From positions 62,001 to 126,000 of the forward strand of contig BROI01000001.1 of assembly GCA_027923505.1 (NCBI GenBank): a DNA stretch of 64,000 nucleotides, in the 5' to 3' direction. Both the position numbers and the translations under genes were made by a program. The stretch comes from Mayamaea pseudoterrestris. Lineage: Eukaryota. Of the stretch, positions 19,303 through 51,860 are shown one piece after another. The notes under the pieces are model-generated. The model ran no database searches. It saw only the letters and a list, made by a program, of their open reading frames with translations, and was not told the DNA's origin. The first letter of the stretch is position 1; every line of letters begins with the position of its first letter.

Positions 19303-22300
19303 CTACTGCAGCTTGGCTCCAGTGAAACCAGCGCACGCACCGCAGTACGACTCGCGGTAGAACCGAAGAACCTCCGAATCCGCCTCGGGAACGCAGTAGG
19401 TGTTGTATCCAGACCGAGCGCTGTAGTGGCACACGTAGACGGACTTGCCATTGTCGCCACATGGAAAGTCGGTCGATGAGCAGTAGAATTCACCAACTTG
19501 GTCGGAACTAGTAGTCGCGGCTGCAGCTGCCGAAACCTCCTCGGCGCGACGGCCGCCTGCGGAGCAGGTTGCCTTGAGCTTGATCTTGTCAAGACCAGCC
19601 TTCTTGGTGGCATCAATGCTCGACGAGTGGAACAAGTCAAATTGGACCTTCAAGAAGCCATTCGCAAAGTATGTTTGCGGAATGGTCAACTGCGTCGAGT
19701 ACTTTTTGCCAAACGAAGTGTACGACCAGGCAATGCCGTCCGTAGTACCACTCTTGGCGGCAACCGACATGTACGGTAACTCAATACTCTTGCCTTCGAC
19801 ATAGACGTAAAGCTTTTGAGTCGATCCAAGAGCACCAACGTTGTAAAAGTCATACGACAGAACCACTGACTTTGCCATGGATGGAACCGCAAACGTTTTC
19901 GACATCATGGCACCAGAGCCAGTGAGCGGTCCAAGGTAATGGCCCAACTCATCGCAGTCGGACAATAGTCCATTGGTCCACGACGCTGATGTGTCAGAAC
20001 CTTCAAAGTCTTCCCATGAAACGACTTGATCGGCACCTCCTGCGCACATGGTGCTGACAGTCGATGAGCTAACGGTGGCCGAAGCCAACAGTGGGTTGCC
20101 ATTCACAGCGACTGAAGCGAGGCTCAATGGAGCGGCGCTCTTGGCAATAATGTGACCGACGACAATATCACCGTTGCACGCCACCTTGATGTGATTTTGG
20201 GCTGTCGCAGTTGTTTGCGATGTCAAGCTATCCGAGCACATGCTTCGGTCTTGGTCTTGTGGAAGGAGATCAGCTGCATCAGTTTCCATCTCATGCCATT
20301 GTACGGTTGTCGCCGAAAGGTCTATGTATGAAACGTAAATCTTTTTGGTGGCACCATCTGTGATCGCAACAAACACAGAATCTTCAAAAGAATCAATAGA
20401 CATGCCAGACGCGGCGGCGTAGACAGGCTTGTTCACCAGTGTTGGGGGAATTGCACCTGCCCGCCCTGTTGTACGTGCTGCAACTTCAAATCCTTGGCTA
20501 TCTGATTTCAAAGCGCTTGGGTAGTTTCGCCAGATACTCAAGTAAGCGAAACCACCGTTCGCGGCATCGACCCATCCCACCGCGGGAATACCAGATTTTG
20601 TGAAAACAAAGTCATTGGCGCACGACTTGGCACTGTTGGCGGCGCCCAGATAAGCAGCACTGTACACCAGTTCATCCAACGCTCTCCAAGATCCTGTGGA
20701 AAACGCGTCATCCTCGCTTGCCGCCAAATGTCTGCTATTACTCTTGAGGTCACGATGCACAGTTGCGGCACACTTGCAGCCAATCTTGAGTTCAGAGTAG
20801 GTAGCCCAGCTTCCGCCAGCCGTGATATCGACTCCAGTACTCCAAGCCGTCTGTCCACCACCTCCATTGGCAGTTTGGACTGAAGAATGCGCGGCAAACT
20901 TATAAGTGCGACTAGCAAATTCACGCCCGGATGAGCAGTCGGGCAACAAAGGTGTTGTGATAGTGTATCTCTTAGTACATGTTGATGTGCTGATGTTCGC
21001 CTTTGCAGGAAAGTTTCCAATTTGAGGATTACCCTTGTTGTTGCTAGGAATGTTGTCCCCGATGTATGCCTGAACTTCCTTCAAGCAATAGCCACTGTCA
21101 AGTGTATCATATGTGATCTTCGCATAATCAGTATTTCCGTTGATGATTTCAACGCAAACCTGGCCTGCCTTGTAGTGCTGTCCGGCCATCATTGGATAAC
21201 ATGATGTCATTGATCCACTTGCAGAAAAGCTGGCAACGCAACTAGTCGTTGCCGCCTCAGTTACGGCCATCGCAACAGGAGCACTTGTTGGAGATCTTGC
21301 GACAGGTGCCACACTTGGCGCTGCGATTGGCGTCACTACAGGAGCGTTGGTTGGAGCCTTGGTAATTTGCTTAGTGTTGGGCTCAAATCGAGCGACAACT
21401 AAATGCTTGTCGCCTTCAAAGACATCAAAGCCTTTCAATCCAGAGTCATCAGAGACAACGGCATGAACTGCACAAGCAAAATTTCCAATTCCTGAAATAG
21501 CTAAGTGAGCATCAGAGCTAGACCCTGGTATAATTCGAGCATTTTCACTGTCACCTCCAACTGGTCTCCATCCAGCCTCTGGATGAGCACTATTGTAGTA
21601 CCAAACTACAGCAGAGCCACTGACATTAACAGAGTCTAAATGACCTGTGCCAGCCTTGCCAACCATGACAAAGTAGTATCCCATCAAGTTGCTGCATTCA
21701 CAAGCTGAAGGCATCAACAGTTCAATGTCGCCAACACCAGCAACTCCAATTCTATTTTGCCATCCAAGCTCTCGCCATTTCTGGTCAGTCTCATCAAGAC
21801 AGTAGACGAGTGGTGTTCCTGGCTTACCAGGAATGTTGTTGCCACCAATGGATGGTGTGCTGTCGGAGAAAACCATGCAAACCTCGTTTCCTCGAGCCTG
21901 TATGTCAAACGATTGTACACAGTCTCCGTTACTGGAAACTTTGATGTCCGGTACTTTGGCAGTGTCAATCACACGATTTGCATCATACGAAACATAGCGA
22001 GAGCCCCCAACATACGACCAGATGCCACCGCTGAGTTTAAGAGCCGTTAGTTTCTCGTATTCACCCTGACTATCCTGAACAAGGTAATACATTGTATCTG
22101 AGTTGGAGCATGGCATGGCAATTCGTGGATGAGTTGCGCTTTCACCTATTCCATGACAAGACGCAGTTTCTAGGGTGTTAGTTGTATCCACAAATGATGG
22201 ATGGGGTGCTAACTTAGTGGGAATGCCCGGATACATCCACTTGTCAGGAGTGAACATAGTTTCTTCTCCACTGCATGAGCATGGGCATGTTTCTTGCGCT

Positions 22301-25300
22301 GGTGGTGAGTATGTGTAATCAATACCAATCTTGGCAAATGTAGGACTTGTTGTTGGTGTTTTATTAGGTGACGATGCAGGTGTAGACGGAGGTAAAAATT
22401 CTGGAGCACCACCCACACTGCTTGATGCACAAATGGATGTAACAACAATGTTATCCATTCCAATCACACCCTTCACACCCAAGGTCAACCTCCCTGTTGT
22501 TAGCCATGATGATGGAATAATGAGAGTAATGTGACTCGAGGAATCTTCTTTATTGATGAATGTAGCTCTAATATCCGCAAAATAACCTGAAACAGTCTTA
22601 GGTGTGGAGCTGAGCAAGTGTCCAATATCTGGGTATGAATCTTGTATGCGTAGGTAGACATCCTCTGTAGCCCGCAAATGGTACAAGTCAAAGCTGACAC
22701 TCATTGCAGTTGCACCAGATGGTACACTGTAGGTCTTAGCCATTTCATCAGCCTTTGGGGCAATGTATGTTGTTAAGGTCTTGTCCGCCACAGCGCTTGC
22801 AAAAAACCAACTTGTTAGGTCAACATTTGTCTCGAAGTTTTCTTCCGCAACAATCAAGTTGTCGTCGGAGTTGCATGTAAGTGGGAGTGGGAGCTTAGCA
22901 CATGCCGCAGTTACCTCACATGGAACTGAAATAGCATAACTGATGGTATTCTCCCCAGAATTAAAGAGCTGGCAGAGATTTGACATGACTGCACTCTCAC
23001 CCATGAACATCGCATCCTGCACAAAGATGGTGATGTCTGCTACACCATTTTGGCAGAGGGCTGTATAAAGGCCAACTTCACCTGGGGCAACATAGGACTT
23101 GTCATTGCAAGTCTTTGTACCATCCGTGTATGTATACTCTGTTCCAAGGAGACAAACTGGAGTGTTGGACCATGTCTGTGAAACAGAAAATGAAACTGTC
23201 TCACTGTCTTGAGATATTATGGTGATTGGACCATATTCAAACTCATGCAATGGCGAGCTTGGCGTGATTGTGATACATTCTGGTGTTAAGTTTGGCATGG
23301 AAGTTGGAGGCACAGTTGGAATGGTTACTGGTGCGACTGTTGGTCCATCAGTTGGAGCCGTCGTGTATCCACAGATAGCTGTAATGACAAGGTTGTCAAT
23401 TCCAAACGATCCCTTGAACCCTAGCGTCAAGCGGCCAGTGGTAAACCAAGATGATGGTATGACAAGTGTGACCTGGTTCATCGAGTTTCCCTGGCTAATG
23501 ACTGTTGTGCGAATGTTGGCAAAATATCCCGACTTATCGTCTTCTGAAGTCATAGAAAATTTGCCAAGGTCTGGGTATGAATCTTGAATGCGCAGGTAAA
23601 TGTTCTCGGAGTCAGCTAGTTCATAAAGGTCAAAGGTGACACTCAAAGCTGATGCCTCAGATGGAACACTAAAGGTCTTAGATGTTTCCACATCTTCCGG
23701 TACAAGGAAAGCTGTAAGTGCCTTATCAGGCATCTGATCAGCATAGAACCATGAGTCAATAGAATCCTGAGTTTCAAAATTTTCTTTGACGATGATCATG
23801 TCACTGTCATTTTCACATGTATTAACGGGAGGAAGTTCACCACAAACATAAGAAGGAAGGCAAGGAATCACGATTGTATAGCTGATGGTGTTTTCTCCAG
23901 ACTCAAATAGCTCGCAAAGACCAGGAACCACAGACTTGGCTCCAGCAAAAACTGCATCTTGAACATAAACTGATATCTCTGCCATGCCATTATAGCACAC
24001 AGCTTTGTAGGACCCAACTTCACCTGGTGCAACGTTGTCCTTGTCATCACAAATCTTTTCACCATCATCTGAAAATGTGTACTCAGTTGCAAGGAGACAA
24101 ACTGGATTGTTTGACCAAGTTTGTGCAACACTGAAGGACACAGATTCTCCATCCTGTGCAAGGATCTGAATTGGGCCATAGTCAAACTCAACTGAAGACG
24201 AACCTGGCATGAAAGTAATGCACTCTGTATCAGGAATTGTGACTTTCTGGGTAGTCAGTAAAGGCTCTGGAGTGGGGGGAGAGCTAGGAGAGCTACTTGG
24301 AGAAATGCTGGGTGACGCACTAGGACCCATGCTTGGACCTGAGCTTGGCTCAATGCTTGGTGACTCACTTGGTGAGTAACTAGGAGACTCACTTGGGCTA
24401 GCACTTGGAAATGTGCTAGGATACTGACTGGGTGAAGAACTTGGTGATCCACTGGGGGTAGTGCTAGGACTAGTACTCGGTGATCCACTTGGTGAACTGC
24501 TTGGTGACGTACTAGGCGCACTGCTGGGTGAGGCGCTAGGTGATCCACTGGGTGAAGAGCTTGGTGATCCACTGGGTGTAGCACTGGGTGATGCACTGGG
24601 TGTAGCACTGGGTGATGCACTGGGTGACTCACTTGGTGTGGCACTGGGTGACTTGCTTGGGGAAGCACTGGGTGATTCACTTGGTGATGCACTGGGTGTT
24701 TCACTTGGAGATGCACTGGGTGACGCACTGGGCGATCCACTTGGTGATGCACTGGGCGATTCACTGGGGGATGCACTGGGAGAAATACTGGGCGTAGCAC
24801 TTGGTCCAGAGCTTGGTTCCAGACTAGGTGGTGAACTTGGACCACCACTGGGGGAAGAACTTGGTGTTGCACTTGGACTGGAGCTTGGGGAGATGCTGGG
24901 TGATGCGCTTGGTCCAGAGCTGGGGGAGTTACTGGGACTAGCACTAGGTGACGCACTGGGACCAGTGCTTGGTGATGCACTTGGACTTACACTTGGTGAG
25001 GCACTTGGACTGGCGCTTGGAGATGCACTGGGTGTTTCACTTGGACTAGCACTTGGTGAAGAACTAGGTGTTGCACTGGGGGTGGTGCTTGGGCTAGTAC
25101 TTGGTAAGCTGCTGGGGGAAGCACTCGGCGAGGAGCTTGGTGATCCACTTGGTGGACTGCTTGGTGACGTACTAGGCGCACTGCTGGGTGAGGCGCTAGG
25201 TGATCCACTGGGTGAAGAGCTTGGTGATCCACTGGGTGTAGCACTGGGTGATGCACTGGGTGACTCACTTGGTGTGGCACTAGGAGACTCACTGGGTGAT

Positions 25301-28300
25301 GCACTGGGTGACTTGCTTGGGGAAGCACTGGGTGATTCACTTGGTGATGCACTGGGTGTTTCACTTGGAGATGCACTGGGTGATGCACTGGGTGACGCAC
25401 TGGGTGACGCACTGGGCGATCCACTTGGTGATGCACTGGGCGATTCACTGGGGGATGCACTGGGAGAAATACTGGGCGTAGCACTTGGTCCAGAGCTTGG
25501 TTCCAGACTAGGTGGTGAACTTGGACCACCACTGGGGGAAGAACTTGGTGTTGCACTTGGAGTGGAGCTTGGGGAGATGCTGGGTGATGCGCTTGGTCCA
25601 GAGCTGGGGGAGTTACTGGGACTAGCACTAGGTGACCCACTGGGACCAGTGCTTGGTGATGCACTTGGACTTACACTTGGTGAGGCACTGGGACTGGTGC
25701 TTGGAGATGCACTGGGTGTTTCACTTGGACCAGCACTTGGTGAAGAACTGGGTGTTGCACTGGGGGTGGTGCTTGGGCTAGTACTTGGTAAGCTGCTGGG
25801 GGAAGCACTTGGCGAGGAGCTTGGTGATCCACTTGGTGGACTGCTTGGTGACGTACTTGGCGCACTGCTGGGTGAGGCGCTAGGTGATCCACTGGGTGAA
25901 GAGCTTGGTGATCCACTGGGTGTAGCACTAGGTGATGCACTGGGTGACTCACTTGGTGTGGCACTAGGAGACTCACTAGGTGATGCACTGGGTGACTTGC
26001 TTGGGGAAGCACTGGGTGATTCACTTGGTGATGCACTGGGTGTTTCACTTGGAGATGCACTGGGTGACGCACTGGGTGATTCACTTGGTGATGCACTAGG
26101 CGACTCACTGGGGGATGCACTGGGAGAAATACTGGGCGAAGCACTTGGTCCAGAGCTTGGTTCCAGACTAGGTGGTGAACTTGGACCACCACTGGGGGAA
26201 GAACTTGGTGTTGCACTTGGACTGGAGCTTGGGGAGATGCTGGGTGATGCGCTTGGTCCAGAGCTGGGGGAGTTACTGGGACTAGCACTAGGTGACGCAC
26301 TGGGACCAGTGCTTGGTGATGCACTTGGACTTACACTTGGTGAGGCACTGGGACTGGCGCTTGGAGATGCACTGGGTGTTTCACTTGGACTAGCACTTGG
26401 TGAAGAACTGGGTGTTGCACTGGGGGTGGTGCTTGGGCTAGTACTTGGTAAGCTGCTGGGGGAAGCACTTGGCGAGGAGCTTGGTGATCCACTTGGTGGA
26501 CTGCTTGGTGACGTACTAGGTGCACTGCTGGGTGAGGCGCTAGGTGATCCACTGGGTGAAGAGCTTGGTGATCCACTGGGTGTAGCACTGGGTGATGCAC
26601 TGGGTGACTCACTTGGTGTGGCACTAGGAGACTCACTAGGTAATGCACTGGGTGACTTGCTTGGGGAAGCACTGGGTGATTCACTTGGTGATGCACTGGG
26701 TGTTTCGCTGGGTGACGCACTGGGTGATTCACTTGGTGATGCACTCGGCGACTCACTGGGGGATGCACTGGGAGAAATACTGGGCGAAGCACTTGGTCCA
26801 GAGCTTGGTTCCAGACTAGGTGGTGAACTTGGACCACCACTGGGGGAAGAACTTGGTGTTGCACTTGGACTGGAGCTTGGGGAGATGCTGGGTGATGCGC
26901 TTGGTCCAGAGCTGGGGGAGTTACTGGGACTAGCACTAGGTGTTGCACTGGGACCAGTGCTGGGCGATGCACTTGGACTAACACTTGGTGAGGCACTGGG
27001 ACTGGCGCTTGGAGATGCACTGGGTGTTTCACTTGGACTAGCACTTGGTGAAGAACTGGGTGTTGCACTGGGGGTGGTGCTTGGGCTAGTACTTGGTAAG
27101 CTGCTGGGGGAAGCACTTGGCGAGGAGCTTGGTGATCCACTCGGTGGACTGCTTGGTGACGTACTAGGCGCACTGCTTGGTGAGGCGCTAGGTGATCCAC
27201 TGGGTGAAGAGCTTGGTGATCCACTGGGTGTAGCACTGGGTGATGCACTGGGTGACTCACTTGGTGTGGCACTAGGAGACTCACTAGGTGATGCACTGGG
27301 TGACTTGCTTGGGGAAGCACTGGGTGATTCACTTGGTGATGCACTGGGTGTTTCACTTGGAGATGCACTGGGTGATGCACTGGGTGACGCACTGGGTGAT
27401 TCACTTGGTGTTGCACTCGGCGACTCACTGGGGGATGCACTGGGAGAAATACTGGGCGAAGCACTTGGTCCAGAGCTTGGTTCCAGACTAGGTGGTGAAC
27501 TTGGACCACCACTGGGGGAAGAACTTGGTGTTGCACTTGGACTGGAGCTTGGGGAGATGCTGGGTGATGCGCTTGGTCCAGAGCTGGGGGAGTTACTGGG
27601 ACTAGCACTAGGTGACGCACTGGGACCAGTGCTGGGCGATGCACTTGGACTAACACTTGGTGAGGCACTGGGACTGGCGCTTGGAGATGCACTGGGTGTT
27701 TCACTTGGACTAGCACTTGGTGAAGAACTGGGTGTTTCACTGGGGGTGGTGCTTGGGCTAGTACTTGGTAAGCTGCTGGGGGAAGCACTTGGCGAGGAGC
27801 TTGGTGATCCACTTGGTGGACTGCTTGGTGACGTACTAGGCGCACTGCTGGGTGAGGCGCTAGGTGATCCACTGGGTGAAGAGCTTGGTGATCCACTGGG
27901 TGTAGCACTGGGTGATGCACTGGGTGACTCACTTGGTGTGGCACTAGGAGACTCACTAGGTGATGCACTGGGTGACTTGCTTGGGGAAGCACTGGGTGAT
28001 TCACTTGGTGATGCACTGGGTGTTTCACTTGGAGATGCACTGGGAGATGCACTGGGTGACGCACTGGGTGATTCACTTGGTGATGCACTCGGCGACTCAC
28101 TGGGGGATGCACTGGGAGAAATACTGGGCGAAGTACTTGGTCCAGAGCTTGGTTCCAGACTAGGTGGTGAACTTGGACCACCACTGGGGGAAGAACTTGG
28201 TGTTGCACTTGGACTGGAGCTTGGGGAGATGCTGGGTGATGCGCTTGGTCCAGAGCTGGGGGAGTTACTGGGACTAGCACTAGGTGACGCACTGGGACCA

Positions 28301-31300
28301 GTGCTGGGCGATGCACTTGGACTAACACTTGGTGAGGCACTGGGACTGGCGCTTGGAGATGCACTGGGTGTTTCACTTGGACTAGCACTTGGTGAAGAAC
28401 TGGGTGTTGCACTGGGGGTGGTGCTTGGGCTAGTACTTGGTAAGCTGCTGGGGGAAGCACTTGGCGAGGAGCTTGGTGATCCACTTGGTGGACTGCTTGG
28501 TGACGTACTAGGCGCACTGCTGGGTGAGGCGCTAGGTGATCCACTTGGTGAAGAGCTTGGTGATCCACTGGGTGTAGCACTGGGTGATGCACTGGGTGAC
28601 TCACTTGGTGTGGCACTAGGAGACTCACTAGGTGATGCACTGGGTGACTTGCTTGGGGAAGCACTGGGTGATTCACTTGGTGATGCACTGGGTGTTTCAC
28701 TTGGAGATGCACTGGGTGATGCACTGGGTGACGCACTGGGTGATTCACTTGGTGATGCACTCGGCGACTCACTGGGGGATGCACTGGGAGAAATACTGGG
28801 CGAAGCACTTGGTCCAGAGCTTGGTTCCAGACTAGGTGGTGAACTTGGACCACCACTGGGGGAAGAACTTGGTGTTGCACTTGGACTGGAGCTTGGGGAG
28901 ATGCTGGGTGATGCGCTTGGTCCAGAGCTGGGGGAGTTACTGGGACTAGCACTAGGTGTTGCACTGGGACCAGTGCTTGGTGATGCACTTGGACTTACAC
29001 TTGGTGAGGCACTGGGACTGGCGCTTGGAGATGCACTGGGTGTTTCACTTGGACTAGCACTTGGTGAAGAACTGGGTGTTTCACTGGGGGTGGTGCTTGG
29101 GCTAGTACTTGGTAAGCTGCTGGGGGAAGCACTTGGCGAGGAGCTTGGTGATCCACTTGGTGGACTGCTTGGTGACGTACTAGGCGCACTGCTGGGTGAG
29201 GCGCTAGGTGATCCACTGGGTGAAGAGCTTGGTGATCCACTGGGTGTAGCACTGGGTGATGCACTGGGTGACTCACTTGGTGTGGCACTAGGAGACTCAC
29301 TAGGTGATGCACTGGGTGACTTGCTTGGGGAAGCACTGGGTGATTCACTTGGTGATGCACTGGGTGTTTCACTTGGAGATGCACTGGGTGATGCACTGGG
29401 TGACGCACTGGGTGATTCACTTGGTGATGCACTCGGCGACTCACTGGGGGATGCACTGGGAGAAATACTGGGCGAAGCACTTGGTCCAGAGCTTGGTTCC
29501 AGACTAGGTGGTGAACTTGGACCACCACTGGGGGAAGAACTTGGTGTTGCACTTGGACTGGAGCTTGGGGAGATGCTGGGTGATGCGCTTGGTCCAGAGC
29601 TGGGGGAGTTACTGGGACTAGCACTAGGTGTTGCACTGGGACCAGTGCTTGGTGATGCACTTGGACTTACACTTGGTGAGGCACTGGGACTGGCGCTTGG
29701 AGATGCACTGGGTGTTTCACTTGGAGTAGCACTTGGTGAAGAACTGGGTGTTTCACTGGGGGTGGTGCTTGGGCTAGTACTTGGTAAGCTGCTGGGGGAA
29801 GCACTTGGCGAGGAGCTTGGTGATCCACTTGGTGGACTGCTTGGTGACGTACTAGGCGCACTGCTGGGTGAGGCGCTAGGTGATCCACTGGGTGAAGAGC
29901 TTGGTGATCCACTGGGTGTACCACTGGGTGATGCACTGGGTGACTCACTTGGTGTGGCACTAGGAGACTCACTAGGTGATGCACTGGGTGACTTGCTTGG
30001 GGAAGCACTGGGTGATTCACTTGGTGATGCACTGGGTGTTTCACTTGGAGATGCACTGGGTGATGCACTGGGTGACGCACTGGGTGATTCACTTGGTGAT
30101 GCACTCGGCGACTCACTGGGGGATGCACTGGGAGAAATACTGGGCGAAGCACTTGGTCCAGAGCTTGGTTCCAGACTAGGTGGTGAACTTGGACCACCAC
30201 TGGGGGAAGAACTTGGTGTTGCACTTGGACTGGAGCTTGGGGAGATGCTGGGTGATGCGCTTGGTCCAGAGCTGGGGGAGTTACTGGGACTAGCACTAGG
30301 TGTTGCACTGGGACCAGTGCTCGGTGATGCACTTGGACTTACACTTGGTGAGGCACTGGGACTGGCGCTTGGAGATGCACTGGGTGTTTCACTTGGACTA
30401 GCACTTGGTGAAGAACTGGGTGTTGCACTGGGGGTGGTGCTTGGGCTAGTACTTGGTAAGCTGCTGGGGGAAGCACTTGGCGAGGAGCTTGGTGATCCAC
30501 TTGGTGGACTGCTTGGTGACGTACTAGGCGCCCTGCTGGGTGAGGCGCTAGGTGATTCACTGGGTGAAGAACTTGGTGATCCACTGGGTGTAGCACTGGG
30601 TGATGCACTGGGTGACTCACTTGGTGTGGCACTAGGAGACTCACTGGGTGATGCACTGGGTGACTTGCTTGGGGAAGCACTGGGTGATTCACTTGGTGAT
30701 GCACTGGGTGTTTCACTTGGAGATGCACTGGGTGATGCACTGGGTGACGCACTGGGCGATCCACTTGGTAATGCACTAGGCGACTCACTGGGGGTAGCAC
30801 TTGGTCCAGAGCTTGGTTCCAGACTAGGTGGTGAACTTGGACCACCACTAGGGGAAGAACTTGGTGTTGCACTTGGACTGGAGCTTGGGGAGATGCTGGG
30901 TGATGTGCTTGGCCCAGAGCTGGGGGAGTTACTGGGACTAGCACTAGGTGATGCACTGGGACCAGTGCTCGGTGATGCACTTGGACTAACACTTGGTGAG
31001 GCACTGGGACTGGCGCTTGGAGGTGCACTGGGTGTTTCACTGGGACTAGCACTTGGTGAAGAACTGGGTGTTGCACTTGGGGTGGTGCTTGGGCTAGTAC
31101 TTGGTAAGCTGCTGGGGGAAGCACTTGGTGAGGAGCTTGGTGATCCACTTGGTGAACTGCTTGGTGACATACTAGGCGCACTGCTGGGTGAGGCGCTAGG
31201 TGATCCACTGGGTGAAGAGCTTGGTGATCCACTGGGTGTAGCACTGGGTGATGCACTGGGTGACTCACTTGGTGTGGCACTAGGAGACTCACTGGGTGAT

Positions 31301-40300: not shown

Positions 40301-43300
40301 GGAGCTATTGGGCTTACAGATGGTGAGGTTGTTGGACTTGTGGTTGGTCCACCAGTGGGTGCAACAGTTGGTGACACAGTGGGGCCTCCAGAAGGTGAGA
40401 CTGTTGGGCTGGTGGTTGGTAATCCAGTTGGCACACCCGTGGGAGAAACGGTTGGTGTGCTTGTTACTGGGCTAGCAGTTGGGTTGCCTGGTTCAACAGT
40501 AGGCTGACCAGTTGGGGAGACAGTTGGTCCACCAGTGGGTGCACTTGTTGGTGACACAGTTGGACCACCAGTTGGCCCAGCAGTGGGAGAAGCAGTAGGA
40601 CCACCAGAAGGTGTTGCTGTTGGGCCTCCAGATGGTGATGCAGTTGGCGAGGTAGTTGGTCCACTGGTAGGTGCACCAGTGGGTGCACCAGTGGGTGAAA
40701 TAGTTGGGCTACCAGATGGAGACATAGTTGGAGCACCAGTTGGTGACACAGTGGGGCCTCCAGAAGGTGAGGCTGTTGGGCTGGTGGTTGGTAATCCAGT
40801 TGGCACACCAGTGGGAGAAACGGTTGGTGTGCTTGTTACTGGGCTAGCAGTTGGGTTGCCTGGTTCAACAGTAGGCTGACCAGTTGGGGAGACAGTTGGT
40901 CCACCAGTGGGTGCACTTGTTGGTGACACAGATGGACCACCAGTTGGCCCAGCAGTGGGAGAAGCAGTAGGACCACCAGAAGGTGATGCTGTTGGGCTTC
41001 CAGATGGAGAAACAGTCGGACCAGCAGATGGCGAAACAGTCGGGCCACCAGATGAAGAAACAGTAGGAGATATTGATGGGCCAGATGAAGGAGACGCAGT
41101 TGGGCTACCAGTGGGGGCAACAGATGGTGACCCAGTGGGGCCTCCAGAAGGTGAGACTGTTGGGCTGGTGGTTGGTAATCCAGTTGGCACACCAGTGGGA
41201 GAAACGGTTGGTGTGCTTGTTACTGGGCTAGCAGTTGGGTTGCCTGGTTCAACAGTAGGCTGACTAGTTGGGGAGACAGTTGGTGCACCAGTGGGTGCCC
41301 TTGTTGGTGACACAGTTGGACCACCAGTTGGCCCAGCAGTGGGAGAAGCAGTAGGACCACCAGAAGGTGATGCTGTAGGGCCTCCAGATGGTGATGCAGT
41401 TGGAGAGGTAGTTGGTCCACTGGTAGGCGCACCAGTGGGTGCACCAGTGGGTGAAATAGTTGGGCCACCAGATGGAGAAACAGTTGGGCCACCAGATGGA
41501 GACACAGTGGGGCCTCCAGAAGGTGAGGCTGTTGGGCTGGTGGTTGGTAATCCAGTTGGCACACCAGTGGGAGAAACGGTTGGTGTGCTTGTTACTGGGC
41601 TAGCAGTTGGGTTGCCTGGTTCAACAGTAGGCTGACCAGTTGGGGAGACAGTTGGTCCACCAGTGGGTGCACTTGTTGGTGACACAGTTGGACCACCAGT
41701 TGGCCCAGCAGTGGGAGAAGCAGTAGGACCACCAGAAGGTGATGCTGTTGGGCCTCCAGATGGAGATGCAGTTGGACCAGCAGATGGTGAAACAGTTGGG
41801 CCACCAGATGGAGACACAGTAGGAGATACCGTTGGTCCTCCAGAAGGTGAGACTGTTGGGCTGGTGGTTGGTAATCCAGTTGGCACACCAGTGGGAGAAA
41901 CGGTTGGTGTGCTTGTTACTGGGCTAGCAGTTGGGTTGCCTGGTTCAACAGTAGGCTGACCAGTTGGGGAGACAGTTGGTCCACCAGTGGGTGCACTTGT
42001 TGGTGACACAGTTGGACCACCAGTTGGCCCAGCAGTGGGCGAAGCAGTAGGACCACCAGAAGGTGATGCTGTTGGGCTTCCAGATGGAGAAACTGTTGGA
42101 CCAGCAGATGGCGAAACAGTCGGGCCACCAGATGGAGATACAGTAGGAGATACTGTTGGGCTAGATGAAGGAGACACAGTTGGGCCACCAGTAGGTGCAA
42201 CAGTTGGTGACACAGTGGGGCTTCCAGAAGGTGAGACTGTTGGGCTGGTGGTTGGTAATCCAGTTGGCACACCAGTGGGAGAAACGGTTGGTGTGCTTGT
42301 TACTGGGCTAGCAGTTGGGTTGCCTGGTTCAACAGTAGGCTGACCAGTTGGGGAGACAGTTGGTCCACCAGTGGGTGCACTTGTTGGTGACACAGTTGGA
42401 CCACCAGTTGGCCCAGCAGTGGGCGAAGCAGTAGGACCACCAGAAGGTGATGCTGTTGGGCTTCCAGATGGAGAAACTGTTGGACCAGCAGATGGCGAAA
42501 CAGTCGGGCCACCAGATGGAGATACAGTAGGAGATACTGTTGGGCTAGATGAAGGAGACACAGTTGGGCCACCAGTAGGTGCAACAGTTGGTGACACAGT
42601 GGGGCTTCCAGAAGGTGAGACTGTTGGTCTGGTGGTTGGTAATCCAGTTGGCACACCAGTGGGAGAAACGGTTGGTGTGCTTGTTACTGGGCTAGCAGTT
42701 GGGTTGCCTGGTTCAACAGTAGGCTGACCAGTTGGGGAGACAGTTGGTCCACCAGTGGGTGCACTTGTTGGTGACACAGTTGGACCACCAGTTGGCCCAG
42801 CAGTGGGAGAAGCAGTAGGACCACCAGAAGGTGTTGCTGTTGGGCTTCCAGATGGAGAAACAGTTGGACCAGCAGATGGTGAAACAGTTGGGCCACCAGA
42901 TGGAGATACAGTAGGAGATATTGTTGGGCCAGATGAAGGAGACGCAGTTGGGCCACCAGTGGGGGCAACAGATGGTGAACCAGTGGGGCCTCCAGAAGGT
43001 GTGACTGTTGGGCTGGTGGTTGGTAATCCAGTTGGCACACCAGTGGGAGAAACGGTTGGTGTGCTTGTTACTGGGCTAGCAGTTGGGTTGCCTGGTTCAA
43101 CAGTAGGCTGACTAGTTGGGGAGACAGTTGGTCCACCAGTGGGTGCACTCGTTGGTGACACAGTTGGACCACCAGTTGGCCCAGCAGTGGGAGACGCAGT
43201 AGGACCACCAGAAGGTGATGCTGTTGGGCCTCCAGATGGAGATGCAGTTGGGACAGCAGATGGTGAAACAGTTGGGCCACCAGATGGAGATACAGTAGGA

Positions 43301-46300
43301 GATACTGTTGGGCTAGATGAAGGAGACACAGTTGGGCCACCAGTGGGTGCAACAGTTGGTGACACAGTGGGGCTTCCAGAAGGTGAGACTGTTGGGCTGG
43401 TGGTTGGTAATCCAGTTGGCACACCAGTGGGAGAAACGGTTGGTGTGCTTGTTACTGGGCTAGCAGTTGGGTTGCCTGGTTCAACAGTAGGCTGACCAGT
43501 TGGGGAGACAGTTGGTCCACCAGTGGGTGCACTTGTTGGTGACACAGTTGGACCACCAGTTGGCCCAGCAGTGGGAGAAGCAGTAGGACCACCAGAAGGT
43601 GATGCTGTTGGGCTTCCAGATGGAGAAACAGTTGGACCAGCAGATGGTGAAACAGTTGGGCCACCAGATGGAGATACAGTAGGAGATATTGTTGGGCCAG
43701 ATGAAGGAGACGCAGTTGGGCCACCAGTGGGGGCAACAGATGGTGAACCAGTGGGGCCTCCAGAAGGTGTGACTGTTGGGCTGGTGGTTGGTAATCCAGT
43801 TGGCACACCAGTGGGAGAAACGGTTGGTGTGCTTGTTACTGGGCTAGCAGTTGGGTTGCCTGGTTCAACAGTAGGCTGACTAGTTGGGGAGACAGTTGGT
43901 CCACCAGTGGGTGCACTCGTTGGTGACACAGTTGGACCACCAGTTGGCCCAGCAGTGGGAGACGCAGTAGGACCACCAGAAGGTGATGCTGTTGGGCCTC
44001 CAGATGGAGATGCAGTTGGGACAGCAGATGGTGAAACAGTTGGGCCACCAGATGGAGACACAGTTGGAGATACCGTTGGTCCTCCAGAAGGTGAGACTGT
44101 TGGGCTAGTGGTTGGTAATCCAGTTGGCACGCCAGTGGGAGAAACGGTTGGTGTGCTTGTTACTGGGCTAGCAGTTGGGTTGCCTGTTTCAACAGTAGGC
44201 TGACCAGTTGGGGAGACAGTTGGTCCACCAGTGGGTGCACTTGTTGGTGACACAGTTGGACCACCAGTTGGCCCAGCAGTGGGAGAAGCAGTAGGACCAC
44301 CAGAAGGTGTTGCTGTTGGGCTTCCAGATGGAGAAACAGTTGGACCAGCAGATGGCGAAACAGTTGGGCCACCAGATGGAGATACAGTAGGAGATATTGT
44401 TGGACCAGCAGATGGTGAAACAGTTGGGCCACCAGATGGAGACACAGTAGGAGATACCGTTGGTCCTCCAGAAGGTGAGACTGTTGGGCTGGTGGTTGGT
44501 AATCCAGTTGGCACACCAGTGGGAGAAACGGTTGGTGTGCTTGTTACTGGGCTAGCAGTTGGGTTGCCTGGTTCAACAGTAGGCTGACCAGTTGGGGTGA
44601 CAGTTGGTCCACCAGTGGGTGCACTTGTTGGTGACACAGTTGGGCCACCAGTTGGCCCAGCAGTGGGAGAAGCAGTAGGAACACCAGAAGGTGATGCTGT
44701 TGGGCCTCCAGATGGTGATGCAGTTGGACCAGCAGATGGTGAAACAGTTGGGCCACCAGATGGAGACACAGTGGGAGATACCGTTGGTCCTCCAGAAGGT
44801 GAGACTGTTGGGCTGGTGGTTGGCCCTCCAGTTGGCACACCAGTGGGAGAAACTGTTGGTGTGCTTGTTACTGGGCTAGCAGTTGGGTTGCCTGGTTCAA
44901 CAGTAGGCTGACTAGTTGGGGAGACAGTTGGTCCATCAGTGGGTGCACTTGTTGGTGACACAGTTGGACCACCCGTTGGCCCAGCAGTGGGAGAAGCAGT
45001 AGGACCACCAGAAGGTGATGCTGTTGGGCCTCCAGATGGAGATGCAGTTGGAGAGGTAGTTGGTCCACTGGTGGGTGCACCAGTGGGTGCACCAGTGGGT
45101 GAAACAGTTGGGCCACCAGATGGAGACGTAGTTGGAGCACCAGTTGGTGACACAGTGGGGCCTCCAGATGGTGAGGCTGTTGGGCTGGAGGTTGGTAATC
45201 CAGTTGGCACACCAGTGGGAGAAATGGTTGGTGTGCTTGTTACTGGGCTAGCAGTTGGGTTGCCTGGTTCAACAGTAGGCTGACTAGTTGGGGAGACAGT
45301 TGGTCCACCAGTGGGTGCACTTGTTGGTGACACAGTTGGGCCACCAGTTGGCCCAGCAGTGGGAGAAGCAGTAGGAACACCAGAAGGTGATGCTGTTGGG
45401 CCTCCAGATGGTGATGCAGTTGGACCAGCAGATGGTGAAACAGTTGGGCCACCAGATGGAGACACAGTGGGAGATACCGTTGGTCCTCCAGAAGGTGAGA
45501 CTGTTGGGCTGGTGGTTGGCCCTCCAGTTGGCACACCAGTGGGAGAAACGGTTGGTGTGCTTGTTACTGGGCTAGCAGTTGGGTTGCCTGGTTCAACAGT
45601 AGGCTGACTAGTTGGGGAGACAGTTGGTCCATCAGTGGGTGCACTTGTTGGTGACACAGTTGGACCACCCGTTGGCCCAGCAGTGGGAGAAGCAGTAGGA
45701 CCACCAGAAGGTGATGCTGTTGGGCCTCCAGATGGAGATGCAGTTGGAGAGGTAGTTGGTCCACTGGTGGGTGCACCAGTGGGTGCACCAGTGGGTGAAA
45801 CAGTTGGGCCACCAGATGGAGACGTAGTTGGAGCACCAGTTGGTGACACAGTGGGGCCTCCAGAAGGTGAGACTGTTGGGCTGGTGGTTGGCCCTCCAGT
45901 TGGCACACCAGTGGGAGAAACGGTTGGTGTGCTTGCTACTGGGCTAGCAGTTGGGTTGCCTGGTTCGACAGTAGGCTGACTAGTTGGGGAGACAGTTGGT
46001 CCACCAGTGGGTGCACTTGTTGGTGACACAGTTGGACCACCAGTTGGCCCAGCAGTGGGAGACGCAGTAGGACCACCAGAAGGTGATGCTGTTGGGCCTC
46101 TAGATGGAGATGCAGTTGGACCAGCAGATGGTGAAACAGTTGGGCCACCAGATGGAGACACAGTAGGAGATACCGTTGGTCCTCCAGAAGGTGAGACTGT
46201 TGGGCTGGTAATTGGCACTCCAGTTGGCACACCAGTGGGAGAAACTGTTGGCAAGCGTGTTACTGGGCTAGCAGTTGGGTTGCCTGGTTCAACAGTAGGC

Positions 46301-49300
46301 TGACCAGTAGGGGAATCAGTTGTTTCACCAGTTGGAAATTGTTCTGTTCGTCCCACTGTTTTTATTGTTGGCTCCAAGGTTTGTTCTCTAGTGGGTTGTG
46401 CAGTGGGACTCGTAATGAGTGGTCCACCAGATGGAGATGCAGTTGGAGAGGTAGTTGGTCCACTGGTGGGTGCACCAGTGGGTGAAACAGTTGGGCCACC
46501 AGATGGAGACGTAGTTGGAGCACCAGTTGGTAACACAGTGGGGCCTCCAGAAGGTGAGGCTGTTGGGCTGGAGGTTGGTAATCCAGTTGGCACACCAGTG
46601 GGAGAAACCGTTGGTGTGCTTGTTACTGGGCTAGCAGTTGGGTTGCCAGGTTCAACAGTGGGCTGACCAGTTGGGGAGATGGTTGGTCCACCAATGGGTG
46701 CTCCTGTTGGTGGCAAAGTAGGCAAACTAGTTGGTGATACTGTAGGAAGAATAGTTGGACCACCTGAAGGAAAGAATGTTGGCAAGGTAGATGGAGTTGG
46801 TGTAGGACCCGATGATGGAGTTGCTGTAGGTCCAGATGTTTTGGGTAATGAAGGTGCAGCAGTAGGTCCTACACTGGAAGGGACTGATTGAAAAGCAACA
46901 GGCACCGCACTGGTTGGAGCTGGTGTGCCAGAATAAGCCTCCGTGCCTCCACTGGTTGGAGCTGGTGTGCCAGAGTAAGCCTCCGTGCCTCCACTGGTTG
47001 GAGCTGGTGTGCCAGAGTAAGCCTCAGTGCCTCCACTGGTTGGAGCTGGTGTGCCAGAGTAAGCCTCAGTGCCTCCACTGGTTGGAGCTGGTGTGCCAGA
47101 GTAAGCCTCCGTGCCTCCACTGGTTGGAGCTGGTGTGCCAGAGTAAGCCTCCGTGCCTCCACTGGTTGGAGCTGGTGTGCCAGAGTAAGCCTCCGTGCCT
47201 CCGCTGGTTGGAGCTGGTGTGCCAGAGTAAGCCTCAGTGCCTCCGCTGGTTGGAGCCGGTGTGCCAGAGTAAGCCTCAGTGCCTCCACTGGTTGGAGCTG
47301 GTGTGCCAGAGTAAGCCTCCGTGCCTCCACTGGTTGGAGCCGGTGTGCCAGAGTAAGCCTCCGTGCCTCCACTGGTTGGAGCTGGTGTGCCAGAGTAAGC
47401 CTCCGTGCCTCCGCTGGTTGGAGCTGGTGTGCCAGAGTAAGCCTCAGTGCCTCCGCTGGTTGGAGCCGGTGTGCCAGAGTAAGCCTCAGTGCCTCCACTG
47501 GTTGGAGCCGGTGTGCCAGAGTAAGCTTCCGTGCCTCCACTGGTTGGAGCCGGTGTGCCAGAGTCAGCCTCAGTGCCTCCGCTGGTTGGAGCCAGTGTGC
47601 CAGAGTAAGCCTCAGTGCCTCCGCTGGTTGGAGCTGGTGTGCCAGAGTAAGCCTCAGTGCCTCCAATGGTTGGAGCCGGTGTGCCAGAAAAAGCCTCCGT
47701 GTCTCCAATGGTTGGAGCTGGTGTGTCAGAGTAAGCCTCCGTGCCTCCACTGGTTGGAGCTGGTGTGCCAGAGTAAGCCTCAGTGCCTCCACTGGTTGGA
47801 GCCAGTGTGCCAGAGTAAGCTTCCGTGCCTCCACTGGTTGGAGCCGGTGTGCCAGAGTCAGCCTCAGTGCCTCCACTGGTTGGAGCCAGTGTGCCAGGGT
47901 AAGCCTCAGTGCCTCCGCTGGTTGGAGCCGGTGTGCCAGAGTAAGCCTCAGTGCCTCCGCTGGTTGGAGCCGGTGTGCCACGGTAAGCCTCAGTGCCTCC
48001 GCTGGTTGGAGCCGGTGTGCCAGAGTAAGCCTCAGTGCCTCCACTGGTTGGAGCCGGTGTGCCAGAGTAAGCCTCAGTGCCTCCACTGGTTGGAGCCGGT
48101 GTGCCAGAGTAAGCCTCAGTGCCTCCACTGGTTGGAGCTGGTGTGCCAGAGTAAGCCTCCGTGCCTCCACTGGTTGGAGCTGGTGTGCCAGGGTAAGCCT
48201 CAGTGCCTCCGCTGGTTGGAGCCGGTGTGCCAGAGTTAGCCTCTGTGCTTCCACTGGTTGGAGCTGGTGTGCCAGAGTCAGCCTCAGTGCCTCCGCTGGT
48301 TGGAGCCGGTGTGCCAGAGTAAGCCTCCGTGCCTCCACTGGTTGGAGCTGGTGTGCCAGAGTAAGCCTCCGTGCCTGCACTGGTTGGAGCTGGTGTGCCA
48401 GAGTAAGCCTCAGTGCCTCCACTGGTTGGAGCCAGTGTGCCAGAGTAAGCTTCCGTGCCTCCACTGGTTGGAGCCGGTGTGGCAGAGTCAGCCTCAGTGC
48501 CTCCGCTGGTTGGAGCCGGTGTGCCAGGGTTAGCCTCGGTGCCTCCGCTGGTTGGAGCCGGTGTGCCACGGTAAGCTTCCGTGCCTCCACTGGTTGGAGC
48601 TGTTGTGCCAGAGTAGGCCTCCGTGCCTCCACTGGTTGGAGCTGGTGTGCCAGAGTAAGTCTCCGTGCCTCCACTGGTTGGAGCCAGTGTGCCAGAGTAA
48701 GCCTCAGTGCCTCCACTGGTTGGAGCTGGTGTTCCAAAGTATGCCTCAGTGCCTCCGCTGGTTGGAGCCGGTGTGCCACGACTTAATTGTTGGACGTCAT
48801 CTGATGGTGCTGGAGTGCCAGTGAATTCTTTAGATCCTTCACTTGATGGAGCTGGCGTTCCATTTAGAGACTGGTCCCCTTGACTTGTTGGTGCAGAAGT
48901 TTCTGCTGTAAGGCTATCACTAGAAGGAGCCGGCGTTCCATTTGAAGACTGGTCCCCTTGACTTGTTGGCGCAGAAGAAGGAGCCGGCGTTCCATTTGGA
49001 GACTGTTCTGCTCCACTTGTTGGCAACGGAGTACCTGTGATTCGAAGAGCTCCAGCAGATGGAGCTGGCGTTCCAATTGATGACTGGTCCCCTTCACTCG
49101 TTGGCGCTGGAGTGCCAGTAATTTTAAGACCCTCAGTAGATGGAGCTGGTGTTCCGATTGATGACTGGTCCCCTCCACTTGTTGGCGCTGGAGTTCCAGT
49201 TGTTTGAAGACCTCCAGTAGATGGAGCTGGCGTTTCAAGTAATAACTGATCCCCTTCACTTGTTGGCGCTGGAGTGCCAGTAGTTTGAAGACCCTCAGTT

Positions 49301-51860
49301 GATGGAGCTGGTGTTCCGATTGGCGACTGGTCCCCTCCACTTGTTGGAGCTGGCGTTCCAGTAGTTTGAAGACCTCCAGTTGATGGAGTGGGCGTTCCGA
49401 TTGACGACTGGTCCCCTTCACTTGTCGGTGCTAGAGTGCCAGTCTTTTGTAGACCTCCAGTTGATGGAGCTGGGGTAGCCGTGTTTTGATCATTCCTGCT
49501 TGAAGGACCTGGAGTGCTGCGCATTACCTGATCACCGTTTCCAGATGGAGATGGTGTTGGCATAACAAACACACTTTCGCATGCACAAGCTGCCTTGGTG
49601 GTAAATTTACAAGCCTTCTTTCTCTCTTGGAAATGCTGGTCGCGGCACAACGCATTCGACGCTGAATCTGACGCCGAAAAAGTCTCATCGTAAACGTAAA
49701 TCTCGAGTGCAGCGTATCCACTTTCATCACAGTCAGCTGTAAAGGTCATTTCAGTACTTGGAAGAATGTTTTGCTGGACAACACAACCTGTACTTCCCGC
49801 ATCAGTGAAGACGGCACCAAGTCGCGACAAACTTTTGTCATCAGAAGTCCAAGACTGATTGACGACAAACGAAACTGCAACCTCAGATCGTGAAAGAATT
49901 TTGACGGCTGTTCCATACACTTGACATGAGGAACCAATCTCCATGAAAAGGGGAACATCCTTTCTATCCTTACACTCGAGAGCGCTTGGAGAGCGGACTC
50001 GGGATGGAGCAGCAGTTCTATTCGGCGTCTGCGATCCTTCAGAGGTCGGAGGCGGCGTTCCACCCGGCTGCGATCCTTCAGAGGTCGGAGGCGGTGTTCC
50101 ACCCGGCTGCGATCCTTCAGAGGTCGGAGGCGGCGTTCCACCCGGCTGCGATCCTTCAGAGGTCGGAGGCGGCGTTCCACCCGGCTGCGATCCTTCAGAG
50201 GTCGGAGGCGGCGTTCCACCCGGCTGCGATCCTTCAGAAATTGGAGGCGGCGTTCCACCCGGCTGCGATCCTTCAGAAGTCGGAGGCGGTGTTTTAGTCA
50301 ACTGCGATCCTTCCAAGGTCGGAGGCGGCGTTCCAACCGGCTGCGAGTTTCGAGCAAGAGTCGTGACAGTAGACGCGCAGGCACAAGCTAACGACATACT
50401 GTAGCCACAAGTCGATTTTTGGCTTCCACCAAATCTATGCTTCGAGCAAGCGTCAGGAACCACAGCAGAGTCCTCTTGAAGAGTCCACCCAGTGTACGAA
50501 ACATAAAGTTCAATGTCGGCGTAACCGTCGACACATTCTGCTTCGTAGGTAATGGCCTTGTTCTTCTCGACGTGCATGCTGGCCTTGCAGTCATCCTCCC
50601 CGTCTGCAACAGTCACGACTGTCCACCAACTGAGATGGTCTTCAATCTGCCATGTGTTACTGACTGTAAAAGAGACCTTCTTGTCATCGCGCGCCGTGAC
50701 TTCGATGGGAGCGTCGCCGTAAGCACACGAGCTACCGGCAACTAGATCCAGCGTACCGTCCTTTCGATCCGCGCAGGCAGCGGAAAGAGGCAGCTTCAAG
50801 GTCGGCTTCTCGTCGCCAGCTGGAGCTTGCGTTGGGTCAAGGGTTTGAGACGGCATGGACGAGGCACAGAAACGTGGATCAATCATGTGCCCTAAGCAAG
50901 AAGGAGGAGGAGAAGTCAAAAAATGAAAATAAAGCGGAATATGTGAGACAACGGATTCGCGAAATGCATGCAATGTTTCATCGTTACGAATTACGTACCG
51001 TAGCAGTCGTCTCGGGTGGGCATGTCCGTCCTGCAAACGAGATCAAGGTTTCAACAATTCACAATGAGACTGACATTTGACGAGGCGACTCGCTATGCAC
51101 GACTCTCATGAAAATACGTACGCGATGAATCCTTCAGGGTACTCGTTCAAAAACGAAGAAGGAGCCGGCGTAGGGACTTGCGTCATGACTGGACTTGGCG
51201 TCGGCTTGTTCGTGGCCTCGTTGGAGGCAGAACTCGGCGACGGCGCATCGGCCATGATAATAGTATTTTCACTTTCATTTGTATTGTTATTTTCCTGCAG
51301 ACCGCGATCGGCGGCAGCATTATCTAGCTGGCGGCAATCGGGGGCGTCAGGATCTGTAGTAAAGGTGAAGGAAAGATCAAATGCAAGGTGTGAGAGAGGC
51401 GATGAGATAGGGTGATTCATTACTGCTCCGACTTGATGTCAGACGATCGCCTCACGAAAGGTACAGTCGCTCCTTCACCGAAACATTTCAGGACACGTCA
51501 AATGCGACTCTCATTCCAAATAGCGATACAATAATAGCACTTACGTTCCAAGCATAATTTGACGAGTTCCTTCCAATCCAAACCTTGGGCGGATCGAGAT
51601 CCGGCGGTCGGTGGAAACGGATTGGAAGCAACTGGTGGGCACATGCTTCGTTTGGCAGGGTCATTGTAGTCGCAATCGAGACGACCTTCCTTACGGTTTC
51701 GGTTCAAGTTAAGTCCAAAGTGACTAAAGAACGAAAGCGATTTGCGTTCGAAAACGCCAGGAATCGTCTGGAAAAGCGATGACACGGTCTCACTCAGACC
51801 GGCCTCGGAAGCTTGCGCGCAGAGCGCCAAGAGAACTAGAGAGCGTAGGGGGTGCAACAT
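19303..51860 (-). CDS. Giant secreted mucin-like Pro/Ser/Thr-rich multidomain protein (4 exons, 10,722 aa predicted)
   Basis: Exons on the minus strand: 51860-51545, 51353-51122, 51030-50999 (32 nt), 50891-19303. Introns are GT..AG with matching phases 1, 2, 1. The total is 32,169 nt, in frame, ending in TAG at 19303-19305. Signal-peptide-like N-terminus MLHPLRSLVLLALCAQASEA. The track's start at 51036 lies in an intron. Cys-rich globular domains alternate with PT/PS arrays. No TM segment seen. Confidence 0.88.
24290..31405 (-). repeat. Coding higher-order tandem repeat, unit about 648-684 nt (mostly 672 nt / 224 aa), about 10-11 copies, built on PSxx tetrapeptides
   Basis: The marker GGPSSPPSLEPSSGP recurs near 24.82, 25.50, 26.16, 26.81, 27.48, 28.15, 28.82, 29.50, 30.17 and 30.82 kb. 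Confidence 0.95.
32350..33585 (-). repeat. Coding PSxx array, about two diverged copies of the 672-nt-type unit
   Basis: The same marker peptide occurs near 32.36 and 32.97 kb. Confidence 0.9.
34480..39420 (-). repeat. Coding 636-nt (212 aa) tandem repeat, about 7.7 copies
   Basis: Antisense ORF starts at 34721, 35357, 35993, 36629, 37265, 37901, 38537 and 39173 give an exact 636-nt period. Confidence 0.95.
40330..46700 (-). repeat. Coding PT-rich higher-order repeat, units of 324, 372 or 384 nt, 18 marker copies
   Basis: The marker QPTVEPGNPTASPVT recurs 18 times (antisense ORF ends 40507 to 46666). Unit lengths differ mostly by multiples of 12 nt. Confidence 0.95.
46910..48780 (-). repeat. 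Coding 42-nt minisatellite (GTPAPTSGGTEAYS), about 44 copies
   Basis: Near-perfect 42-nt period. Degenerate GTPAP 14-mers continue to about 49500. Confidence 0.95.
50030..50345 (-). repeat. Coding 39-nt tandem repeat (GTPPPTSEGSQPG), about 8 copies
   Basis: The unit gatccttcagaggtcggaggcggcgttccacccggctgc is repeated on the + strand. Confidence 0.92.

Follow-up and report, generated by a model that had tools for sequence, protein, structure and literature searches.

The window analyzed here is a stretch of 64,000 nucleotides from Mayamaea pseudoterrestris (positions 62,001 to 126,000 of contig BROI01000001.1), and it carries a giant gene that runs from 51860 to 19303 on the minus strand. All positions below are those of the window, and all features of the gene lie on that strand. 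The locus is probably a single expressed nuclear gene encoding a secreted, acidic, modular protein of 10,722 amino acids. By analogy with trail proteins of other raphid diatoms we think it reasonably likely that the product forms an extracellular fiber, O-glycosylated and serving as adhesive or mucilage, with its most likely use in raphe-secreted trails for sticking and gliding. NCBI taxonomy places M. pseudoterrestris in the Sellaphorales, among the raphid pennate diatoms, and the available text of PMC9724779 reports gliding in 35.8–51.3% of its cells.

The region from 51042 to 19303 is open from stop to stop over 10,579 codons; the listing of open reading frames (ORFs) gives it as 19303..51036, with 10,577 amino acids counted from the first TTG. 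Over 51042..19303 the coding frame has no stops. The two remaining sense frames have 127 and 676, and the frames of the opposite strand 172–613. The non-repetitive 3′ part of 4,959 nt has no stop in the coding frame, against 50–121 in the other frames. Since this part is open by itself, the giant frame is more than an effect of low complexity.

Three short exons precede the giant one. An ATG at 51860 opens MLHPLRSLVLLALCAQASEA, which was judged by eye to have the character of a signal peptide. Exon 1 (51545..51860), defined by sequence, contig joints and translation, contributes 316 nt of coding sequence. It is followed by exon 2 (51122..51353, 232 nt), a micro-exon 3 of 32 nt (50999..51030) and exon 4 (19303..50891), which holds 31,589 nt of unbroken frame including the stop. 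The sizes use a ‘+1’ cut at the contig joints, and sum to 32,169 nt, or 10,722 codons plus stop. Four coded runs (X1–X4) from one study contain the 5′ stretch; X2–X4 count as one study. Contigs start at 51917–51923, giving a 5′ untranslated region of ∼60 nt. One contig each in X2, X3 and X4 joins 51920..51545, 51353..51121, 51029..50998 and 50890..50350, the last segment extending from the joint to at least 50350. The 191 and 91 nt skipped before and after exon 2, and the 107 nt that follow the micro-exon, read CT..AC on the plus strand and hence GT..AG on the gene strand. X1 retains all three in unspliced form. Because three canonical GT..AG introns are precisely removed we read the X2–X4 contigs as transcript, and infer an RNA origin for them.

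Without its first 20 residues the product has a mass of 1,017 kDa and a pI of 4.2. Proline, threonine, serine and glycine make up 65.7% of the protein (S 27%, P 19%, T 11% and G 9%), which contains 92 cysteines, and there is no hydrophobic stretch at the C-terminus. The original prediction, made from the sequence of the window, had proposed the signal peptide, the three short 5′ exons (one of 32 nt), the 31,589-nt frame and the 10,722 residues, and contig joints and translation reproduce these figures exactly. It had also proposed a single secreted product of ∼1 MDa from one 31.6-kb exon, in agreement with the calculated mass and with the joining of the three short exons to exon 4.

Most of the protein is repetitive. 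The arrays were mapped using Tandem Repeats Finder and autocorrelation. On the N-terminal side there is a 13-residue repeat (50029..50346; 39 nt × 8.2, 91% matches), a 27-residue repeat (48972..49473; 81 nt × 6.2) and a 14-residue repeat GTPAPTSGGTEAYS (46908..48778; 42 nt × 44.5, 93% matches). These are followed by PT arrays (40024..46866) of 34 + 484 P[TS]xx units with a higher-order unit of ∼384 nt. In the main PT array the spacing is exactly four residues in 447 of 483 steps, and a regular 16-residue interruption recurs (..EPGNPTASPVTS..). There are three PS arrays. The first (34465..39480) has 418 PSxx units in a 636-nt unit present in 7.9 copies with 96% self-identity, adjacent units being 97–98% identical. 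The second (32338..33585) has 104 units with a period of 612 nt, and the third (24265..31404) 595 units with a period of 672/1344 nt. The higher-order units of the PS arrays are all multiples of 12 nt, and the P[ST] spacing is exactly four residues throughout, i.e. in 417/417, 103/103 and 594/594 steps for arrays 1, 2 and 3 respectively. In total there are 1,635 P[S/T]xx units comprising 6,692 amino acids, 62% of the protein. The four-residue register is the most striking feature of the arrays, more so than the 636- and 672-nt units. The repeat periods found are 636 nt (with 96% self-identity), 672/1344, 612, ∼384, 42 and 39 nt, of which the 636- and 672-nt periods, and the 13- and 14-mers, had been noted before. 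The earlier list had left out the 81-nt array at 48972–49473, which lies between A copy 2 and the 14-residue repeat, and its ∼24 kb of repeat DNA measures ∼22.8 kb.

The survival of the frame through these repeats had been taken to imply purifying selection. Selection is supported by other data, but the frame argument is weaker than was claimed; all unit lengths are divisible by three, so that unequal exchange cannot break the frame and its survival is a weak sign of selection. Selection on the arrays is better shown by the perfect four-residue spacing and by an excess of third-position differences among units. The variants of the 636-nt unit, compared over seven full units, differ at codon positions 1, 2 and 3 in 23, 20 and 54 cases respectively, and 40 are synonymous against 31 non-synonymous. 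For the folded parts the evidence is conservation. The C-terminal region is 56–74% identical to that of relatives P0002–P0005, from other organisms, and the repeated A+B module described below has 189 related clusters at E ≤ 0.001, 32 of them at E ≤ 1e-30. This breadth of related sequences indicates that selection maintains the A+B modules.

Folded modules punctuate the repeat arrays. We built hidden Markov models (HMMs) of two recurring domains, A and B, from an alignment of 26 sequences. With these, A is found six times and B five times, at the places given in the earlier domain order. Three of these copies are outside the training alignment, and score well. They are A copy 1 (50374..50730, residues 248–366, independent E-value 9.3e-22), A copy 2 (49576..49929, residues 515–632, 2.3e-17) and the terminal B domain (19558..20052, residues 10474–10638, 2e-31). 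The HMMs place the remainder in four A+B modules, at 33586..34467, 31405..32340, 23368..24219 and 22423..23274. Between the PT and PS arrays there is also a unique domain of ∼165 amino acids (39508..40005), for which we found no Pfam or NCBIfam match, and no PDB sequence match at E ≤ 1.

The first A+B module was modeled with AlphaFold2 as two beta-sandwiches, with a mean predicted local distance difference test score (pLDDT) of 88.7 and a predicted template modeling score of 0.81. Domain B (module residues 153–304) superposes on the porphyran-binding carbohydrate-binding module (CBM) 8xmz_B with Z = 10.4 (2.4 Å over 114 residues) and on the CBM22 structures 4xup_A and 4xuo_B with Z = 10.3 (2.7 Å over 125–126 residues), at an identity of only 16–18%. 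Many further CBMs are among the matches, and the top Foldseek match is also CBM22. In the model B thus has a beta-jelly-roll fold of the CBM type, and it may bind glycans. At the level of sequence, B has no match to Pfam CBM families, and neither the A+B profile nor the C-terminal profile matches PDB sequences at E ≤ 1. Five of the six A copies match Pfam DUF7633 (PF24636) weakly, at 12.7–25.2 bits. Even the best copy, with 25.2 bits and E = 1.9e-5, is below the gathering cut-off of 27 bits (A copy 2 has E = 0.0015 and 19.1 bits), and among the 26 aligned A+B family members only three match DUF7633 at E ≤ 0.001. Going by these profile scores, domain A is at most a divergent relative of DUF7633, a family of which our literature search found no mention.

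The relatives of A+B are metagenome fragments, and include short secreted proteins of 300–600 amino acids. One of the 26 aligned relatives (P0046, a secreted protein of 584 amino acids) has a GDPH motif (..GGGGDPHFQRWG..) directly behind A+B. At the level of the motif, this would connect the A+B family with the diatom adhesion proteins of GDPH type that the trail literature describes. A search with A+B for longer proteins returned six metagenome proteins only, and two scans of the metagenome DNA around the relatives gave no confirmed locus.

The C-terminal region begins with an all-beta part (21358..22305) that may comprise propeller blades; it is conserved in P0002–P0004 and modeled with low confidence. 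It continues after an insert as a second such part (20053..20715), assigned from relatives, model and fold comparison. In the poor model of this region the nearest solved folds are mostly propellers, including LRP4, PLL and fucose lectins, neuraminidases and WD40 proteins, with Z = 6.5–8.8, a range rated common. The region had been called propeller-like; with these Z-scores and the quality of the model a beta-propeller near the C-terminus is weakly supported. The insert itself is a cysteine-containing beta domain named AGQHY (20767..21270), with pLDDT values of 64–88 in the otherwise poor model. It is present in P0003, while P0002, P0004 and P0005 continue straight across the site, and it is therefore a true insert. 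The protein ends, after the terminal B domain, in a cysteine-rich tail (19306..19488) with seven cysteines, and the stop is at 19303–19305. The same tail is found in P0002–P0005. As it also follows B in P0092, P0021 and P0024, B and the cysteine tail form a conserved C-terminal cassette.

The AGQHY domain, the tail and the N-terminal exons have no Pfam, NCBIfam or PDB sequence match. In the ESM Atlas the 1,040-residue C-terminal region gave no usable match, and the AGQHY domain only unnamed clusters at 0.92–0.93 with low recognition. Matches to Pfam SSI, BclA_C, PITM1-3, MucBP_2 and NTR2 were far below the cut-offs and were rejected as due to chance. An NCBIfam search gave nothing above noise, and none of 3,016 candidate proteins of 5,498–17,497 amino acids matched the C-terminal region. 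P0002 and P0003 occupy most of their contigs of 5.2 and 6.8 kb, and as they nearly fill them they may be cut by the contig ends.

The AGQHY domain is ∼50% identical to four copies in neighboring genes. Directly downstream of the giant gene, at 8631–16272 on the minus strand, is a cluster of smaller frames with at least four AGQ(H/N/R)Y domains besides that of the giant protein. These are 46–52% identical to the giant's domain, three of them are 68–89% identical to each other, and they are joined to further repeats and to arrays of PT tetrapeptides. In the frame at 9470–13426 the PT array has ∼76% nucleotide identity over ∼146 nt to the interruption unit of the giant PT array. The neighbors therefore have a domain, and also units of their arrays, in common with the giant gene.

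Part of the gene has been annotated. The C-terminal 1,040 amino acids are 100% identical to P0001, deposited at NCBI as hypothetical protein MPSEU_000001600 [Mayamaea pseudoterrestris], which is 1,631 amino acids long and lies on a 2.99-Mb contig. That model starts in the A domain of the third A+B module and covers only the last 15% of the frame. The gene identifiers tried for the giant gene are not mentioned in the accessible supplements of PMC9724779, which describes the assembly (30.6 Mb in 41 contigs; Nanopore 52×, read N50 8.6 kb, Illumina-polished).

The closest published counterparts come from the adhesive trails of Craspedostauros australis. The available part of bioRxiv 10.1101/2023.03.06.531300 describes CaTrailin4, an 894-kDa protein from an intronless gene of 28,951 bp, and Ca5609, which exceeds 1 MDa. 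Like these, the giant protein is secreted, has a size between ∼0.9 and more than 1 MDa, belongs to a raphid diatom and is encoded by a very long gene with few or no introns. All have Pro/Thr/Ser (PTS) repeats accounting for 50–70% of the sequence between repeated cysteine-containing domains with no assigned function, and short-read or automatic annotation overlooked or shortened all of them. The content of proline, threonine, serine and glycine is 69–78% in CaTrailin4 and Ca5609 and 66% in the giant protein. The domains differ. The CAA domain (PF20597) of the Trailins was sought by hmmscan against Pfam-A in every non-array segment of the giant protein and gave no match at E up to 1 or 0.01. 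As no CAA domain was found, we set the giant protein apart from the Trailins; it is no Trailin. The Naviculales are reported there to lack the C-terminal regions of both CaTrailin4 and Ca5609; NCBI places Mayamaea in the Sellaphorales. The interspersed modules of the giant protein are pairs of A (DUF7633-like) and B (CBM-fold) domains, and those of CaTrailin4 and Ca5609 are named DUF1/DUF2. The hallmark of the trail proteins of Amphora is, according to the same source, GDPH, and in a test at the level of the motif this string is absent from the 10,722-residue product.

A second point of comparison is TLP-4, a freshwater glycofibril studied by cryo-EM. The available text of PMC11725842 describes its only protein as a linear chain of PT/Sxx-type tetrapeptides, each carrying two glycans on 3,4-dihydroxyproline and one on the adjacent serine or threonine, with a rise of 12.4 Å. 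Its source protein is unidentified according to that text, with diatoms the leading candidates. Long consecutive PT/Sxx (or T/SPxx) tetrapeptide repeats characterize TLP-4-like proteins, and the giant protein has such repeats, with 1,635 P[ST] units. Both are of freshwater origin and have linear repeats, and the register in the giant protein runs without slip over 418, 104 and 595 units. The longest candidate in PMC11725842 is a Nitzschia protein of 6,077 amino acids with 667 PSxx repeats, compared with the 10,722 amino acids and 1,635 units here. Unlike the pure repeat chain of TLP-4, the giant protein has 13 or more folded modules, and its hydroxylation and glycans are predicted. The name Mayamaea was not found in the accessible supplement text of that paper.

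There is also a likeness to the gel-forming and tethered mucins of animals, which share with the giant protein huge PTS-rich arrays, a single giant exon, cysteine-containing globular domains beside and between the arrays, and cysteine-rich ends. In its strict tetrapeptide period and in the dihydroxyproline chemistry expected of it, however, the protein is of algal and not of animal character. The vWD, CysD, SEA and cystine-knot families have no Pfam match in the N-terminal, inter-array or C-terminal segments.

These comparisons suggest how the proposed fiber might be made. In the secretory pathway the prolines of the 1,635 P[S/T]xx units would be hydroxylated, and the (di)hydroxyproline and adjacent serine or threonine O-glycosylated. 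Each array would then become a stiff, sugar-sheathed rod of the type seen in the TLP-4 glycofibril. The rod segments would be ∼0.13–0.74 μm each and ∼2 μm in all. The folded modules would be sticky or cross-linking points on the glycans of adjacent fibers, on extracellular polysaccharide or on the substratum, with the CBM-fold B domains and a possible lectin-type propeller as the binding parts. The conserved cysteine-rich tail could link molecules end to end, and the product would be an extracellular adhesive or mucilage strand. A span of micrometers had been suggested in the original prediction. That is plausible, as 1,635 units at the 12.4-Å rise of TLP-4 (PMC11725842) correspond to ∼2.0 μm. 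The gene structure, the register, the folds and the conservation are observed for this protein, and its hydroxylation, glycosylation, extension, glycan binding, localization and tether role are what we infer. According to the available part of bioRxiv 10.1101/2023.03.06.531300, trail material is ∼70% carbohydrate, with 22% serine, 18% glycine, 12% threonine and 17% dihydroxyproline, and modular giants are proposed there to bridge the distance of at least 1 μm that separates the membrane, by way of the raphe, from the substratum.

Several points count against the fiber and the gene as we describe them. The link to trails is by analogy, and the protein lacks both the CAA domain of Trailins and the GDPH motif. 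The likeness of B to known structures is at the level of the fold, with 8–20% identity. Moreover, the same jelly-roll occurs in the receptor-binding parts of bacterial toxins, in reelin, and in Eph and MAM-type domains, and for this reason the fold suggests a binding module without proving a sugar ligand. The model of the 801-residue propeller region is poor, with a mean pLDDT of 44.3. The library kind of X2–X4 is unrecorded, so that their reading as transcript depends on the removal of the three GT..AG stretches, and the contigs reach only the first ∼640 nt of the giant exon. Finally, the copy numbers of the arrays derive from a Nanopore assembly whose read N50 of 8.6 kb (PMC9724779) is close to the array lengths of 5.0–7.1 kb.

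Some of these points bear on what the cell makes from the locus. Introns, starts or polyadenylation within the gene, or proteolysis, could yield smaller glycoproteins, or the lengths of the arrays could be mis-assembled. It is true that the contigs bridge the 5′ end alone and that the deposited model, with its 1,631 amino acids, is confined to the 3′ end; the read N50 was 8.6 kb (PMC9724779) for arrays of 5–7 kb, and adjacent units of PS array 1 are 97–98% identical. Yet there is no stop over 31.7 kb in one frame, the signal-peptide exons are spliced on to it, and the deposited model begins inside an A domain, where a gene predictor would be expected to halt if the repeats were masked. An error in copy number cannot break the frame, and CaTrailin4 shows that intronless genes of this type reach 29 kb (bioRxiv 10.1101/2023.03.06.531300). 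We therefore regard such outcomes as quite improbable. That low-complexity DNA produced the long frame incidentally, with no selection on it as protein, has a negligible chance of being right. The second sense frame does have only 1, 1, 6 and 19 stops inside the arrays. But the non-repetitive 3′ part is open where other frames have 50–121 stops, the folded domains are 56–74% identical in other organisms and the A+B module has its 189 related clusters. Together with the third-position excess among unit variants and the spliced contigs, this excludes a non-coding artefact.

The alternative of most weight accepts the product and changes its place. The same protein could form a mucilage coat on the cell surface or associated with the frustule, comparable to the mucin-like CaFAP1, rather than a gliding tether, with possible roles in water retention, protection, metal chelation or as a colony matrix. 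The giant protein has no membrane anchor and no recognized adhesion domain (CAA or vWA), and the short secreted A+B relatives of 300–600 amino acids would not be tethers. A thick sheath of glycans gives protection and hydration (PMC11725842), and M. pseudoterrestris, a freshwater diatom, raises genes related to extracellular polymeric substances under copper (PMC9724779). However, the composition fits trail material as well as it does a coat, and the published proteins of like size (894 kDa and >1 MDa) come from trails (bioRxiv 10.1101/2023.03.06.531300). We consider a coat possible but on the unlikely side; the present data fit both roles, which cannot be separated by them. Returning to the adhesive fiber, a bolder version of it is doubtful but worth stating. 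The giant family might be the polypeptide core of freshwater TLP-4 glycofibrils, in which case a perfect PSxx array would be a rod of 8 nm glycosylated on dihydroxyproline and serine. The glycan sheaths of other rods would be bound by the B domains, through their CBM fold, and by a terminal propeller. A molecule of 2 μm would then be both fiber and cross-linker, a self-adhesive bottle-brush chain that could carry force from raphe to substratum in gliding.

Two other frames in the window may be mentioned. At 60135–62243 on the plus strand there is a frame with a hydrophobic N-terminal stretch, a cysteine-containing domain, a PT-rich stretch, a transmembrane-like segment (VVIGSVVGVIAALACFLTTGFLLG) and a long tail rich in serine, threonine and aspartate. 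It matches no Pfam family, and judged by these features its product could be a membrane mucin-like protein encoded near the giant gene. At 1166–6865 on the plus strand a frame of ∼1,870–1,900 amino acids has, by Pfam, a BAH domain and an ORC1/Cdc6-type AAA+ ATPase with a lid domain. This ORC1-like protein is unusually long, and by appearance has putative further BAH-type repeats upstream.

The gene had been thought possibly undescribed. That stands for the gene as a whole, of which the deposited model covers just 1,631 amino acids, but not for its kind, since CaTrailin4, Ca5609 and the 6,077-residue Nitzschia protein have been published. Raphid diatoms are already known to secrete giant modular proteins rich in PTS, and proteins with TLP-4-like repeats are known as well. 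What is new is the set of domains, that is the A/B modules, the weakly supported propeller with its mobile AGQHY insert, and the B domain with cysteine tail. This set is unlike those of the Craspedostauros and Amphora trail proteins. In addition, the PS arrays exceed in length and regularity the TLP-4-type repeats in the literature compared, with 595 uninterrupted units and 1,635 in total against 667 (PMC11725842, available text).

The means by which raphid diatoms adhere and glide have yet to be explained, and giant glycoproteins are candidates for the strands that transmit the force. Their genes are routinely broken by assemblies and annotators. The present gene is complete within a single contig, its 5′ splicing is documented, and it belongs to a culturable, gliding freshwater species with a small genome (30.6 Mb). 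It provides a concrete sequence with which to ask whether the mucilage strands of diatoms are glycofibrils of the TLP-4 kind, and whether the glycans of the sheath are ligands of the CBM-fold modules between the arrays.

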